Notes: a model not told the origin generated them from the sequence alone. A stretch of 26,692 nt of DNA from Promethearchaeota archaeon (GCA_048939625.1 JBHLPH010000024.1:1-26692), one strand, 5' to 3'; counted from the stretch's first letter, positions 16,451-22,963 are shown. Numbers and translations are program-made.

Positions 16451-19135
16451 TCAACGAGTGCTTTGAATGAAGGATTTCGATTTATGTTGTTCTTGCTCCC
16501 ATTTCTTTCTCGCTGTACGTAGTTTAAAGAGATCAATGTCCTTGTAGATGACTGCTTCTTTGCCTTTGGGGATGGTTCGTTCTTCACGGTCTTTTTCGGG
16601 GCTATAAATGAGTGAATCACCGAATTCAGCCACGTTAACGAAGAAACTATACGCGTAGATAGAGCGCCTAGCATCAAAGTGTGTCGCTTTAAAATCAGCC
16701 GTAACGGGTGTAAATGCAGGATTGATGATGATGTCAATTGGTGGTTCGAAGTTTTTCAATTCAACTCGGAGATCCATATCTAAGAAATCTCTACAGATTA
16801 TCACTGCAATACGTCCAAATTCGGTATTCGCAATGGTAATTGTGGTCGGCGTGTCACCAGTGTTTATGCCTTCGGTGATTCGCTTTTTCTGAAAGTGAAT
16901 AATTGCTGGGATATGTTTGGATTGTTCCCATTGGAGACCTTGAGGGGATATGATGCTACTGATGTTTTGCTGTGTCTCAACCTTGTGATATGAACCGGGA
17001 ATTAGGTACATGTCATATTTCTTTGCAAGACTGTAAACCTCCTCACGAAGTATCGAGTCGTTCAAGTCGATTGTTAGTTCTGGGAACGCTAGAATTCGGA
17101 CAGCGTTGGCTGCAGCCTCTTTGACCAAGGCTTGGAGTGTTTTTCGAATCGAGTTGATTTTTTCTTTTCGAATTGTAAATAAGCCGGGTGCTTGTTCCTC
17201 ATAGTACTCCTTGAGAATATCCCCATTATGTGACAAGCCAATTTGGGCGATACCCACCCGAAAAACGCTCTGGGCATGTTGTTGTCCATCTGCAAGGAAG
17301 TCAAGATATTCGAGTTGGTACTTCTTTTTCTGGCGTGTTGCGGTTAGTCCTTGTTCATCTATCATTTCGGTGACGGTTTCTTGAATCATGCGTTCGAGCA
17401 GGTCATCCAGCTTCGTGAGTTCAATCAATTCTTGTTTCGTAGGATTCTCCTTGATGATTCGATCCCATTTTTCTATCTGGGAATCGAGAAGCTTTCTTTC
17501 CTTCAAGAGTGTCTGAGCGAGCCGATCTAAACCTGTTTCATCAGCAATAGCCTGGGCTTGGGTGAGGAGTTTATTCGCACGACCCATATCCATTTCGATT
17601 AACGCTAGCTTTGATTGGAGAAGATAGGTTTCCGCTAGGAGGGATTGGGAGGACTGCTCCTTGGCAATTCGAAGTAGTTGGTTTGAGAGATGGCCAATGT
17701 CAGAGATTAGTTCTACTTCACCTGTTAGTTTGAGTTCAGAAAGAAGTACTTCAGTAAGGTGAATCATAGCTGTGACTGTAAGGGAATGATCATAGACCTC
17801 TTCTTTGACAACTGTTTCCAGAATCTCTGCAGCCTTGATTTTCTGGCGTGTGCGCTTACTCGATTTGAGAATGAGGGCTTGTGCGACGTTGAAACGCTGA
17901 GTAATAACAGGGTTCTTGGCTCGAGAATGAATTGCCTTTAGCTGAATCATTGTACTTTCAACGAGATTGGAATCTTGTTTCTCAAGAGCAATCCAAACAA
18001 GTTCAAAAAGGACCATGGCTGTCAAGAAATCGTTACCGAGATCTTCATAGAGCTTTAAACTTCGTTGATAGTAATCTTGAGACTTGCTGTACTCACCTTT
18101 TTTCCGATATACACCTCCAATGTTAGCTAGCAGTAGGGCTATAGATTCTGTGATTTGTAACTCTTCATAAATTCGAAGACTTCTTTGAAAGTGTTCAAGA
18201 GCTTGGTCCAAATCCCCTTTCAAGTCGAAAATATTACCCAGATTGTTGATAGCAAGGGCAATGTCCGATCGGCGACCAGTTTTTTCACTGAATTCCAGAC
18301 TTTTTTCATAATGGCTTTGTGCTTGTTTTAAATCACCTTTGAATTGAAATACGACTCCTAAATTCAAAAGTGAGCGGGCAATATCATGCGGATTTCCGAT
18401 TTCTTCGGTGAGAACTAAACTTCTTTGTTGATATGTCAGGGCTTTCTCAAGGGCACCGAGTCTTGTATAGCAGTTTCCTAAGTTGGATAGGGTAACTGCG
18501 ATATTCCTCTTGATGCCCAGTTGTTCAAAAACCTCCAAAGCTTGGTTATAGAATTCGATCGCCTGATCGAGTTCTCCTTTAGACCAATGAACGAGTCCAA
18601 GGTTATTTAGCGACGAAGCAATTCCTGGTTTGTCATGCAGGGTTTCTCTGATTTCTAGACTTTGCCTATGATAATCTGACGCAGTATCGAAGTCCCCTTT
18701 ATACCAATATAATATACCACCTTGGTGGAGTAACTCCGATTTCCTGATTTTGATTTCTTCGTCTCTTCGTGGTGTCATCACCTCGACTTCTCGTAAAGCT
18801 TTAGTTACGAGCTCAAGGGCCTTATCCATCTGTTCTCTGAGACGAAGCAGTTCCACCTGAAGTGTTATGACATCTATAAATATCAACGAAGATTTTTCTT
18901 CCCGAGATGATTCTTTGACTTCGTTTAGAATGGATTCGGCCTGGTTTAAATCTCCTAAGTCTATCAACAAGCGAACCTGAAGTACTTTGTAAGTCAGCTG
19001 GTCTTCTTTTGGCAATTGGTCGAAGTGTAGAGCTGCCAACTGCGCCATGGCCGAATTATATTCACCTTGCTCTCTGAGCTGGCGAATATGCATCAATTGC
19101 TTCTGAACTTTCGAAGACAATTCTGGTTCTTCCAA
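16451..19135 (-). CDS. TPR-repeat protein fused to a C-terminal carbon-nitrogen hydrolase (nitrilase-fold) domain
   Basis: Tandem 40-aa TPRs (IA.SLNNLG.V....GELDQA..FY.QAL). C-terminal RVGIAQ, LAFPEL (Glu), QSKHIP (Lys), FGRIAVIICRDF (Cys), IIINPAF. Confidence 0.85.
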   Translation of the reverse strand: MEEPELSSKVQKQLMHIRQLREQGEYNSAMAQLAALHFDQLPKEDQLTYKVLQVRLLIDLGDLNQAESILNEVKESSREEKSSLIFIDVITLQVELLRLREQMDKALELVTKALREVEVMTPRRDEEIKIRKSELLHQGGILYWYKGDFDTASDYHRQSLEIRETLHDKPGIASSLNNLGLVHWSKGELDQAIEFYNQALEVFEQLGIKRNIAVTLSNLGNCYTRLGALEKALTYQQRSLVLTEEIGNPHDIARSLLNLGVVFQFKGDLKQAQSHYEKSLEFSEKTGRRSDIALAINNLGNIFDLKGDLDQALEHFQRSLRIYEELQITESIALLLANIGGVYRKKGEYSKSQDYYQRSLKLYEDLGNDFLTAMVLFELVWIALEKQDSNLVESTMIQLKAIHSRAKNPVITQRFNVAQALILKSSKRTRQKIKAAEILETVVKEEVYDHSLTVTAMIHLTEVLLSELKLTGEVELISDIGHLSNQLLRIAKEQSSQSLLAETYLLQSKLALIEMDMGRANKLLTQAQAIADETGLDRLAQTLLKERKLLDSQIEKWDRIIKENPTKQELIELTKLDDLLERMIQETVTEMIDEQGLTATRQKKKYQLEYLDFLADGQQHAQSVFRVGIAQIGLSHNGDILKEYYEEQAPGLFTIRKEKINSIRKTLQALVKEAAANAVRILAFPELTIDLNDSILREEVYSLAKKYDMYLIPGSYHKVETQQNISSIISPQGLQWEQSKHIPAIIHFQKKRITEGINTGDTPTTITIANTEFGRIAVIICRDFLDMDLRVELKNFEPPIDIIINPAFTPVTADFKATHFDARRSIYAYSFFVNVAEFGDSLIYSPEKDREERTIPKGKEAVIYKDIDLFKLRTARKKWEQEQHKSKSFIQSTR

Positions 19136-20194: not shown

Positions 20195-20998
20195 ATGGAA
20201 TCCGTTGCTTTGGTAAATGCGTCCCCTGATTTTAAGCAGACAATCTCCCAAGGACTCAACCTAATCGGTGGTTTCGGGCTTTTAAAATCTCCAATTATCA
20301 TCAAGCCAAACATATGTACAATCTCAGATAATACTGGCTACTCAGTTACCCATCCATTTGTGGTCGAAACGCTTTGTTCCTTAATCTACCAACAGGATTC
20401 CGCTCTTTCGGTTCGTATTGTTGAATCTGATAGTCAGAGTAAATGGGCGAATCAGGCTTTCACAAAATTCGGTTATTCTGATCTCGTTTCACAGTTCCAG
20501 GCTGAAGGCTATGACTTGAGCATAGTTAACCTCAGTGAGTGCCCCTTGAAAGTTGTGCCGTTTGAAGGAGAATATTTCTCTAATCCCGAACTCCCAAATG
20601 AACTCTTAAATCACAGTTATGTGATTTCCGTGGCTCAAGCTAAAACTCACTATTTAACCTCGATAACTGGTGTGCTGAAAAACTTGTTCGGATTTCTCCC
20701 TCGAAAGAAAATGGGCTATTATCATCCAAATATTAATGAAGTCATTGTCGATTTGAACCGTCTTTTTCCCATCAATCTGGCGATTGTAGATGCCCGTGTG
20801 GGAGTAAAAGGATGGAATGGACCAGAAACATTCCCATTAGGAAAATTCATCTTTGGTCACAAACCCGTGTCAGTTGATGCAACACTAGCCCGATTGATGG
20901 AAGTAGATCCTGAAACAATACAGCATTTAATACAATGCCATAAATACGGACTTGGCACATTATCCCCAACAATCCTCAATGATATTGGAAGTGTTTAG
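20195..20998 (+). CDS. DUF362 domain protein
   Basis: IIIKPN, THP, KTH...TGVLKNLFG and PVSVDA motifs. Confidence 0.88.
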   Translation: MESVALVNASPDFKQTISQGLNLIGGFGLLKSPIIIKPNICTISDNTGYSVTHPFVVETLCSLIYQQDSALSVRIVESDSQSKWANQAFTKFGYSDLVSQFQAEGYDLSIVNLSECPLKVVPFEGEYFSNPELPNELLNHSYVISVAQAKTHYLTSITGVLKNLFGFLPRKKMGYYHPNINEVIVDLNRLFPINLAIVDARVGVKGWNGPETFPLGKFIFGHKPVSVDATLARLMEVDPETIQHLIQCHKYGLGTLSPTILNDIGSV

Positions 20999-21491
20999 GC
21001 TGCCAGAAACTAAACCGGAACATGTCTTTACCGAACTAGCTTTCTATCTTTGGAGAGTTCGATTTGAACCGGATCAGGAATGGTTACCCGAACTGATGTT
21101 TAATGGCTCAGAGAAAGCCTTAGCCACGATCCGTGATGCCATTCAGACAATGCGTGAAGAATTCAAAACGCAAGGACAAAGTACTCGAAAGTTTCTCTGT
21201 AATCCACCTGAGGACGTTGATGTTCTTCGATTTGCCCGAGAAAATAAGGCTGAAATCGAATGGCAAATATGGCTAGTCCTTCGAATGGAACAACATGTGT
21301 CAGAGGGTACAACATATGAGGTGAAAAATAAAGCCGTAACAGTCCGATTGAATGATCAGATGGCAGCTGAGTTCACCAGAGTGTTAGATGACTACTTGAA
21401 ACCGGGAGCGATTCACATGAATGGTCTTCCTGTCCCCGGAAATCTATTCCTTGCTTTAGACTGGTTGGGTATTGAAGTGTGGTCAGAATAA
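20991..21491 (+). CDS. Hypothetical protein
   Basis: ORF open from 20952. In-frame GTG 20991 overlaps the DUF362 3' end. No motif recognised. Confidence 0.7.
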   Translation: MFRLPETKPEHVFTELAFYLWRVRFEPDQEWLPELMFNGSEKALATIRDAIQTMREEFKTQGQSTRKFLCNPPEDVDVLRFARENKAEIEWQIWLVLRMEQHVSEGTTYEVKNKAVTVRLNDQMAAEFTRVLDDYLKPGAIHMNGLPVPGNLFLALDWLGIEVWSE

Positions 21492-21528: not shown

Positions 21529-21550
21529 AAAAAAAGAGAAAGGGTGAGAA
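21529..21550 (-). terminator. Pyrimidine/poly-T terminator after the acidic micro-ORF
   Basis: Minus strand reads TTCTCACCCTTTCTCTTTTTTT right after TAA. Confidence 0.5.
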
Positions 21551-21555
21551 GGCTG

Positions 21556-21633
21556 TTACCAGTCCTCCTCATCCTCGTCTTCCCATTCTTCTTCTTCTTC
21601 GTCGTCTTCAGGGCCGTATTCGTATGGATTCAT
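21556..21633 (-). CDS. Acidic micro-protein (25 aa), not in the ORF track
   Basis: MNPYEYGPEDDEEEEEWEDEDEEDW. AAGGTGA RBS upstream, mixed GAA/GAG/GAC/GAT codons, poly-T downstream. Confidence 0.7.
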   Translation of the reverse strand: MNPYEYGPEDDEEEEEWEDEDEEDW

Positions 21634-21775
21634 TCTCTTCACCTTCTTTGATTCATCATGACGTTGTTCAACAGGCAACCATCCGACATCTATCCATCCA
21701 GCAGGGCTAATGGACCACTCCTGCTCTTTGAATAGAGGTCGTGGTCTACGAGGGTCCGTCCGACTCGAAAATGGG

Positions 21776-21847
21776 TTATTTCTTACCCTTCTTTTCGGTA
21801 GTGGTCTTTCCCTTACTCTTTTTCTTTCCTGACTTTTTCTTAGCCAT
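21776..21847 (-). CDS. Lysine-rich micro-protein (23 aa), not in the ORF track
   Basis: MAKKKSGKKKSKGKTTTEKKGKK. GGTCGTGA upstream of ATG, mixed AAA/AAG codons. Confidence 0.65.
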   Translation of the reverse strand: MAKKKSGKKKSKGKTTTEKKGKK

Positions 21848-22042
21848 GAGAATCACGACCAGCGTACCCAAACTGTCGGTTCTAAATCAAAATATTTGTA
21901 CAAAAAATGAGGTTTATTTTCGGTGAAAATCAAAAAATACCGCTTGTTAATCCTTTTTTACAAAGAATGAAACGTAATTATTTTTCGTTAATGATTTTTG
22001 ACTCAAAATCAGTTTAAGATTGAAAAAGAAGGCTATTTCGAT

Positions 22043-22963
22043 TTACTTTGATGCGTCACACAAATTCAATCTATGATGCACTCTTGTAATTGCCGATGCG
22101 ACTCGGTTAACAAGATTGGAAAGATCGATTCCAAATTCATTATGGAAAAATTGTACCTGTTTCCGAAATAAGCGCATCTGTGATCGTAATCGACGAAACT
22201 GGTTGGAGAATTGTTTTGTCTGTCCGTTTTCCTTTTGGACTGTACTCAGTCTCATAAATAAGCTCCGGCAAGCCTTAACAATCCGTTGAGCGCGGTTTGT
22301 TAGGTTTGACTGAATTACTTCGACTATTATGCGATCACCAGAAGAATGGACTAGCTCTAATCGTGGAGCATACAACACCTCTGCTCCAAGCTCTAGAAGA
22401 CGGGAAATAAATTCACTGGGGCGAAGTAGAGATGGTGAATATAATCGAACACGACGAGTTCGGATTTGAGGTAATAACACGATACCTGGCCTCAAACGAA
22501 TAAGTGGTGTCCGGTGAAATATTCGCGATAAGGCTTTTCGCTGAAACTCAGTCTGTAACGGATTGAATAGAACCATCAGATAACGTCGCGAATTTCCTTG
22601 CGAAGTGGTTTGGGTTCTTGCTAATATTGTATTATCACGTCTTGGAATAAAGGTTAGACAATCGGTGTTTTCTAAGGTTAGCCTAAATGGAGTAATTGTC
22701 GGTTGTCGCTTTATTCCATATAATCCATGTCGAATTTGAATCAAGCTAGGATTATCGGTTAAGGCATTTTGATGAATGCTTTTAGCTATGAAGAACCGGG
22801 AAAAGCCCTTGAGTTTCATTGCAGAGCCAATAGTGGGCTCCGCTAGACGCTCAGAACTGGAGGAAAGTACACCATCCTTTGGGATTGATGTCATCTTGTT
22901 AAAAGGGGCTCGATTACTATTTTTGCCTGAATATACCTCGTATTTTACCTTTTCTGTATGCAA
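22043..22963 (-). CDS. Basic hypothetical protein, probable PaaX/ChrB_N-like nucleic-acid-binding regulator
   Basis: LIQIRHGLY (winged-helix wing-like), YLMVLF...RKALSR....LIRLRPGIVLLP...ELGAEV pattern and C-terminal coiled helices. Start uncertain. Confidence 0.5.
   Translation of the reverse strand: MHTEKVKYEVYSGKNSNRAPFNKMTSIPKDGVLSSSSERLAEPTIGSAMKLKGFSRFFIAKSIHQNALTDNPSLIQIRHGLYGIKRQPTITPFRLTLENTDCLTFIPRRDNTILARTQTTSQGNSRRYLMVLFNPLQTEFQRKALSRIFHRTPLIRLRPGIVLLPQIRTRRVRLYSPSLLRPSEFISRLLELGAEVLYAPRLELVHSSGDRIIVEVIQSNLTNRAQRIVKACRSLFMRLSTVQKENGQTKQFSNQFRRLRSQMRLFRKQVQFFHNEFGIDLSNLVNRVASAITRVHHRLNLCDASK

Follow-up and report, generated by a model that had tools for sequence, protein, structure and literature searches.

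Linker histone H1 and prothymosin-α form a disordered polycation/polyanion complex, and DSS1/Sem1, a disordered acidic protein of small size, uses Trp anchors, attaches to basic surfaces of larger partners and can act as a nucleic-acid mimic. Acidic runs interrupted by Trp look similar to DSS1/Sem1 and also to the acidic A regions that bind Arp2/3. PaaX and ChrB are transcription factors. In the PaaX/ChrB superfamily (PF20803, PF20229; PDB 8a39, 3kfw), a Cas2-like ferredoxin-type domain is followed by a helical domain. LysW and ArgW (PDB 3vpb_E, 5k2m_E, 3wwl; PF21344, NF041070) carry an acidic, Trp-containing, disordered C-terminal tail; the LysW tail contacts basic partner proteins. In LysW it is the C-terminal Glu, E53 in the T. 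kodakarensis protein, that bears the substrate (PMC12998189).

Here we analyse a locus in a 26,692-nt stretch of DNA (the window) from a Promethearchaeota archaeon (GCA_048939625.1 JBHLPH010000024.1:1-26692; genome 2.31 Mb), in which a gene for a very basic protein stands beside a Lys-rich and an acidic, Trp-containing micro-ORF. Like H1 and prothymosin-α, the two micro-proteins are oppositely charged, probably disordered and encoded together; unlike them, they are 5–10 times shorter and have no chromatin context, no sequence relationship links the two systems, and the acidic peptide tracks the folded basic protein, not the Lys peptide. It shares with DSS1/Sem1 (PF05160) its small size, acidity, predicted disorder and putative Trp anchors, but is about three times shorter, is unmatched by the model of that family and has different, unrelated partners. 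With the LysW/ArgW tail it has in common that it is acidic, Trp-containing and probably disordered; however, its last residue is Trp where LysW has the substrate-bearing Glu, a zinc ribbon is missing, and its genomic linkage is with a Cas2/PaaX-fold protein and a Lys micro-gene rather than with LysX/Z/Y/J/K. Going by weak fold matches, the basic protein may share with the PaaX/ChrB superfamily a Cas2-like ferredoxin-type domain placed before a helical domain; it differs from that superfamily in having no detectable N-terminal winged helix, an apparently duplicated Cas2-like unit and an extreme positive charge. In full-text literature searches we found no paper that describes a module of these three parts.

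Two micro-ORFs and their flanking signals

The original prediction, made from the window sequence alone, had placed two co-oriented minus-strand micro-ORFs in an apparent intergenic gap, and their coordinates, peptides and charges all proved correct (Table 1). The acidic micro-protein opens with a non-acidic head of 9 residues and ends in EDEEDW. Both ORFs are unannotated; as had been foreseen, they are invisible to normal gene callers, which overlook them because 78 and 72 nt are too short. We searched all six frames of the 2.31-Mb genome with a criterion for acidic-Trp ORFs (18–60 aa; Asp/Glu making up 60% or more of the final 20 residues, which also had to contain Trp and another aromatic) and one for Lys-rich ORFs (at least 35% Lys, at most 35 aa), and each returned a single match, these two micro-ORFs. 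The Lys peptide had no Pfam or NCBIfam match, and no Rfam family was found in the micro-gene region, where permissive thresholds gave chance-level matches only.

Table 1 Features of the locus, listed in the direction of transcription of the micro-ORFs.
Feature	Position (nt)	Strand	Details
Very basic protein gene	22043..22894	minus	283 aa; net +28, pI 11.6
A/T-rich box, consensus AATTTTGATTTRGAAC	21879..21896	minus	conserved columns in a 12-genome alignment
SD-like GTGAT	21852..21856	minus	5 nt 5' of Lys ORF ATG
Lys-rich micro-gene	21776..21847	minus	23 aa + stop; 12 Lys; net +11
Spacer, non-coding	21634..21775	minus	~140 nt; length nearly constant between micro-genes
GTYGAACA block	21665..21672	minus	~35 nt 5' of acidic ORF start
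SD AGGTGA	21639..21644	minus	5 nt 5' of acidic ORF ATG
Acidic-Trp micro-gene	21556..21633	minus	25 aa + stop; 16 Asp/Glu; 2 Trp; net -16
Hairpin	21542..21574	minus	last five acidic codons, stop codon, 14 nt of 3' UTR
T7 run	21529..21535	minus	3' of hairpin
Convergent gene	20952..21491	plus	beyond T-run

A DNA search located the two segments in 13 of 14 congeners, their order unchanged and their distance ~245 nt. The acidic frame is retained in every one of the 13 assembled congeneric loci, always with a C-terminal Trp, and the Lys frame in 11 of them; in two loci (L007/L008) the alignment shows that the start ATG and SD of the Lys ORF are both deleted and that the acidic ORF persists. Start codons and SDs align across the congeneric loci, length differences are all multiples of three, and the frames survive in congeneric genomes where the flanking 283-aa protein is down to 37–41% identity. 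Pairwise differences at codon positions 1/2/3 numbered 353/351/822 for the acidic ORF (pooled pN/pS 0.33) and 225/269/585 for the Lys ORF (pooled pN/pS 0.23), a 2.3-fold excess of third-position changes, as against 1181/1077/1148 and no coding periodicity in the spacer, our control; with short, compositionally biased and phylogenetically non-independent sequences, these figures are indicative, not exact. The non-Lys positions (Ser/Gly/Thr) of the Lys peptide are also conserved within the genus.

The ribosome-binding motifs that had been proposed for each ORF are likewise kept in congeners. In the alignment, that of the Lys ORF is GTGAT or GTGGT in all congeneric loci retaining this ORF, and that of the acidic ORF is GGAG or GGTGA in all congeneric loci. 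Conservation of frames and motifs in relatives, on which the original prediction had staked its case, is therefore genus-wide. Given the SDs and the coding-type substitution patterns, translation is the only reasonable reading, and the two micro-ORFs are very probably real genes within a conserved module.

The signals around the ORFs point to a single transcript. The A/T-rich box, ~35 nt 5' of the Lys ORF start, is likely to be a promoter element of the micro-gene unit. GTYGAACA, the one short conserved block of the spacer, is kept in nearly all congeners, the remaining spacer having diverged; it might act as an internal promoter element or be bound by a protein. We found no consensus RNA structure for the spacer in the orthologue alignment. 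A poly-T stretch had been noted after the second ORF, and a T-rich tract is indeed present there in all orthologues; in the window the T7 run is the likely transcription stop of the unit. It follows a conserved hairpin of 13 pairs (-12.4 kcal/mol), three of which have compensatory changes (RNAalifold, 12 orthologues). The hairpin, which spans the stop codon, explains why the acidic ORF ends in frozen synonymous positions: the last five acidic codons and ~13 nt past the stop are nearly invariant in the alignment, synonymous sites included. We read hairpin and T-run as the putative 3' end of the unit, either a terminator or a stabilising structure. From this layout we infer one small transcription unit made up of box, SD, Lys ORF, spacer, SD, acidic ORF, hairpin and T-run.

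Some other readings of the region were dropped. A C/D-box-like ATGATGA ... CTGA arrangement (~21655–21610), considered as a sign of a non-coding RNA, is not conserved among the orthologues. In L001, L002, L005 and L007 the acidic frame spans the whole spacer, as a frameshift or fusion would have it, but it is broken in L003 and others, and the missing coding periodicity of the spacer also counters this reading. A DNA match within the same genome, on contig C53 (L034:1454-2641), proved to be merely the acidic tail of a 395-aa protein with low-complexity similarity; that tail closes with three Phe. One congener has, ~700 nt 3' of the acidic ORF, an unannotated, eL41-like, Arg/Lys-rich ORF of 22 codons (L010:2511-2579, plus strand).

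The basic partner protein and the reach of the module

The start of the very basic protein, ATG 22894, is conserved in all orthologues of the family alignment. A mechanically called ORF would begin at TTG 22963 and encode 306 aa; its first 23 codons (22895-22963, minus strand) are probably untranslated. The relatives that we checked have net charges of +22 to +37 and pI values of 9.9–11.6, and in the family alignment seven Arg are invariant, whereas residues of a catalytic type are not conserved across the family. The window's 283-aa protein is unmatched in Pfam and NCBIfam, and the family profile had no match among PDB sequences. Its AF2 model (pLDDT 81) comprises a beta-rich N-terminal region, a ferredoxin/Cas2-like domain and a three-helix bundle, with residues 24–84 forming mainly strands and a single helix. 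Foldseek matches were weak (3kfw (Rv0674), E 0.015; 8a39 (PaaX), E 0.14; several Cas2 chains, E ~0.25), as were those to ChrB_N/PaaX_M clusters in a structure atlas (TM 0.47–0.49), but they agreed with one another; VIA-align returned mostly generic three-helix bundles. A distant family relative, P0032, scored 26.3 bits with PaaX_M (cutoff 24), to which the window's own protein is unmatched. From the model, the protein appears to consist of tandem Cas2/PaaX_M-like domains and a three-helix bundle. A winged helix was not detected, the Pfam search up to E 10 giving nothing but a spurious DUF2721 match. The description of this gene as a PaaX-like neighbour thus stands at the level of the fold only; the gene, which had been proposed as a synteny marker, belongs to the system itself. 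A complex prediction for the basic protein and the acidic peptide (in a 40-aa TTG-start form), run without controls, scored 0.01 against a mark of 0.32 and is evidence neither way.

Across the genus the gene order is UPF0182, 283-aa gene, Lys ORF and acidic ORF, then the convergent gene and DUF362, so that the suggested synteny beside the PaaX-like and UPF0182 genes is kept. Three congeners also carry a paralogue of the basic protein (33% identity) in a different neighbourhood, again with both micro-ORFs; as the triad has been duplicated whole into other surroundings in these three genomes, the three genes move as a unit. Orthologues of the basic protein also occur in a second genus, and the acidic ORFs after the paralogues and the second-genus orthologues all end in Trp. 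An exhaustive profile search gave 66 representatives of the basic-protein family, with source labels that include Promethearchaeota, Thorarchaeota, Lokiarchaeota and Bathyarchaeia; of 400 Asgard genomes, 81 have the family.

Table 2 Gene orders and retention of the micro-ORFs.
Lineage or locus	Gene order	Acidic ORF	Lys ORF
Hermodarchaeial genus, main locus	basic, Lys, acidic	13/13	11/13
Hermodarchaeial genus, paralogous locus	basic, Lys, acidic	3/3	3/3
Second genus of the family	basic, Lys, acidic	2/2	1/2
Thorarchaeota-type loci	acidic divergent, 200-500 nt upstream of basic gene	13/13	2/13, after acidic
Asgard family f15	basic, acidic, acidic, Lys	2/2	2/2
Asgard family f12	acidic divergent	1/1	none
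Bathyarchaeia/Methanomethylicia/Culexarchaeia	acidic (60-94 aa), oligo-Lys, basic	8/8	7/8

Linkage of the two ORFs elsewhere was the other point on which the original prediction had made itself vulnerable, and it is found at the paralogous locus, in the second genus, in other Asgard families and in Thermoproteota (Table 2). At least five gene orders, in Asgard archaea and Thermoproteota, place the Lys and acidic ORFs side by side; in the latter the acidic-tail gene and the oligo-Lys ORF stand directly 5' of the basic-protein gene. The one Thermoproteota locus beyond the seven counted with a Lys ORF, L078, has a Lys-rich frame without a canonical start codon. The C-termini of the acidic relatives vary (Trp, Phe, Leu or Asp/Glu).

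This comparison did not support the supposed self-contained cognate pair. In the loci examined the acidic gene never occurs without an adjacent basic-protein gene, and each homologue of the basic protein examined has an acidic relative beside it, but the acidic gene is kept without the Lys ORF at 11 of the 13 Thorarchaeota-type loci, at L028 and in two congeners (G001/G007). Since the Lys ORF has been lost repeatedly, it is not essential to the core function of the module. Judged by gene content and order, the acidic and Lys micro-genes and the basic-protein gene form a conserved three-part module of Asgard archaea and Thermoproteota. It is conserved over two archaeal phyla, among whose members are the nearest relatives of eukaryotes so far known, and it shows how much conserved biology resides in the smallest ORFs.

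At both f15 loci a second, longer acidic-Trp ORF (L080:1728-1892 and L081:1732-1899, minus strand) separates the basic-protein gene from the usual acidic ORF; it encodes 54-55 aa and has a short, basic head. Apparently the micro-protein family has expanded locally here.

Relationship of the acidic members to LysW

In Thermoproteota the product of the acidic gene is a zinc ribbon (CPxC...CxxC) whose polyacidic tail ends in Trp, Phe or Leu. A profile of these zinc-ribbon relatives had LysW chains as its three best PDB matches (E 1.3e-5, 2.6e-5 and 0.01), and the six best Foldseek matches of a zinc-ribbon model were all LysW chains (prob 1.00, TM 0.62–0.88), with a clear gap to the next. The LysW models of Pfam and NCBIfam also rank first for these relatives, below their curated cutoffs (19–24 bits, cutoff 27; 21–29 bits, cutoff 75). 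The Thermoproteota zinc ribbon is a LysW homologue. In the modelled relative the acidic tail has a pLDDT below 50, and the tails in Methanomethylicia and Culexarchaeum have Glu runs with Trp within and at the end, as in the Asgard micro-protein.

From synteny and composition, acidic low-complexity sequence not being reliably alignable, we infer that the Asgard acidic peptide is the tail left of a LysW-type protein after loss of the zinc ribbon. The window's peptide lacks Cys, is too short for a zinc-ribbon domain and gave no Pfam or NCBIfam match up to E 10, LysW models included, and no zinc-ribbon protein with an acidic tail was found anywhere in the genome. A LysW-fold carrier-type protein would thus apparently have been cut to its disordered tail with its genomic partner retained. 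We class the acidic members of the module with the LysW-like acidic-tail small proteins, here with new partners.

Public records name P0105 and its relatives 'sulfonate ABC transporter', 'ribosomal protein S27E', 'FYDLN acid domain-containing protein' or 'hypothetical'. For LysW-fold acidic-tail proteins these names look like mis-annotations, and the family needs proper annotation.

Proposed mechanism, alternatives and lineage-specific neighbours

Our best overall explanation, tentative and in our estimate a little short of probable, combines the micro-genes and the basic protein in one module that works through docking of the acidic peptide. The docking mechanism itself is drawn by analogy and is a possibility that we hold more loosely still. 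The disordered polyanionic peptide would dock on the Arg-rich basic protein, much as the LysW tail does on basic partner enzymes, with its Trp residues serving as anchors, and once docked would mask or tune the binding of the basic protein to its real ligand, probably a nucleic acid. The high positive charge of all family members complements that of the acidic peptide. The Lys peptide, an optional third component with positive charge, would titrate the acidic one. The acidic member is a LysW-fold zinc ribbon with a long polyacidic tail in Thermoproteota and would be the tail alone, a free micro-protein, in Asgard archaea. A broader version is a long shot: an ancient archaeal polyelectrolyte switch in which a LysW-derived polyanion and an oligo-Lys peptide jointly control a basic Cas2/PaaX-fold nucleic-acid binder and in which, as part of the same doubtful proposal, the Asgard acidic partner has been reduced to a free disordered tail of 25-37 residues; such a switch would be a prokaryotic forerunner of eukaryotic acidic disordered adaptors like DSS1 or prothymosin-α. 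Three small, expressible proteins offer a concrete system for the study of polyelectrolyte-peptide regulation in archaea.

Gene adjacency would also be accounted for if the basic Cas2/PaaX-fold protein were a transcription factor that controls the micro-genes without any physical complex. The 13 Thorarchaeota-type loci have the divergent layout around a shared intergenic region that regulators and their targets typically show, and the remote PaaX_M/ChrB_N relationships of the protein and the conserved promoter-proximal box 5' of the Lys ORF agree with such a role. However, Pfam searches detected no winged-helix DNA-binding domain and the N-terminus of the model is beta-rich; order shifts between lineages while adjacency stays, a better fit to products that function together, and some loci are tight co-directional operons with a stop codon abutting the next start. 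We give regulation of this kind a small share of the probability. Somewhat less credible is the pair as first proposed, with the Lys peptide as a free polycation of the histone-tail or nucleoid type, for which the acidic peptide would be the dedicated chaperone or a DNA mimic. The opposite charges of +11 and -16 invite this reading, as do the recurrent adjacency of the ORFs and their translational abutment in Bathyarchaeia, but the acidic gene persists where the Lys ORF is missing (see above), and the Lys peptides of Thermoproteota are mixed Glu/Lys and weakly cationic. The chromatin role fared no better: no histone or chromatin genes lie in the neighbourhoods examined, and neither peptide shows any tie to histones or the nucleoid. 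The Lys ORF might instead be a regulatory upstream ORF, in which ribosome progress over the Lys codons tunes the next gene of the module, here the acidic ORF and in Thermoproteota the basic-protein gene. It always stands 5' of another module gene in Hermodarchaeia and Thermoproteota, conserves only its composition between lineages, and survives as a Lys-rich frame without a canonical start in L078. Yet in L061, L065 and family f15 it is last in the unit with nothing downstream, its Ser/Gly/Thr positions and pN/pS within the genus speak for a conserved peptide, and the spacer has no conserved structure that could relay ribosome occupancy to the SD of the acidic ORF; we regard this role as decidedly unlikely.

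The Asgard host and the Trp-punctuated acidic runs also bring to mind eukaryote-type short linear motifs, either an Arp2/3-binding A region or a DSS1/Sem1-like adaptor. This reading is barely credible: the DSS1_SEM1 model matched neither the peptide (E to 10) nor the six-frame genome (E to 1), a peptide of 25 aa is too short to include WH2 and connector elements, ARPC4 was not found in the genome (a search for which control genomes were uninformative), and in Bathyarchaeia, Methanomethylicia and Culexarchaeia, too, this gene family adjoins the same basic protein. Carrier chemistry, in which the C-terminus of the acidic peptide would be loaded covalently, as in LysW/ArgW, and the peptide would ferry an intermediate from one enzyme to another, has in its favour that the zinc-ribbon relatives are LysW homologues and that the genome encodes two RimK/LysX-type ATP-grasp enzymes. 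These genes, however, lie on other contigs in unrelated contexts; neither the window nor the related loci contain a LysX-type ATP-grasp gene, lysine/arginine pathway genes or other linked biosynthetic genes, and the constant basic neighbour has no family-wide conserved catalytic-type residues. With a terminal Trp in place of the substrate-bearing Glu of LysW (PMC12998189), we consider such a role very unlikely.

The loci with the module differ in their further neighbours. At ten Thorarchaeota-type loci (L035, L054-L056, L058-L060, L063, L064 and L066) a 265-aa CN_hydrolase gene directly follows the basic gene (gap ~36 nt), and this nitrilase-superfamily protein may there extend the module by a fourth component specific to the lineage. 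A TPR-nitrilase of the window (16451-19135) was considered as its counterpart and discarded (E 0.06; the best match in the same genome is on contig C9). A translation-related neighbourhood was also rejected, ribosomal-protein and aIF5B neighbours being present in L036, L067 and L068 and not elsewhere; ABCE1 was at none of the loci examined. Several Thorarchaeota-type loci (L056, L058, L063, L065 and L066) share a TGTGTCAC(C) box in the intergenic region, 40-80 nt 5' of the basic gene, which may be an operator or a promoter element. In Thermoproteota, a P-type cation ATPase gene is co-directional with and downstream of the module in L070, L073 and L075 (~3320 onward), and a Na+/H+ exchanger gene adjoins it in L072, L076 and L078. 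By analogy with ChrB-type regulators, these cation-transporter neighbours may hint at a link to ion homeostasis.
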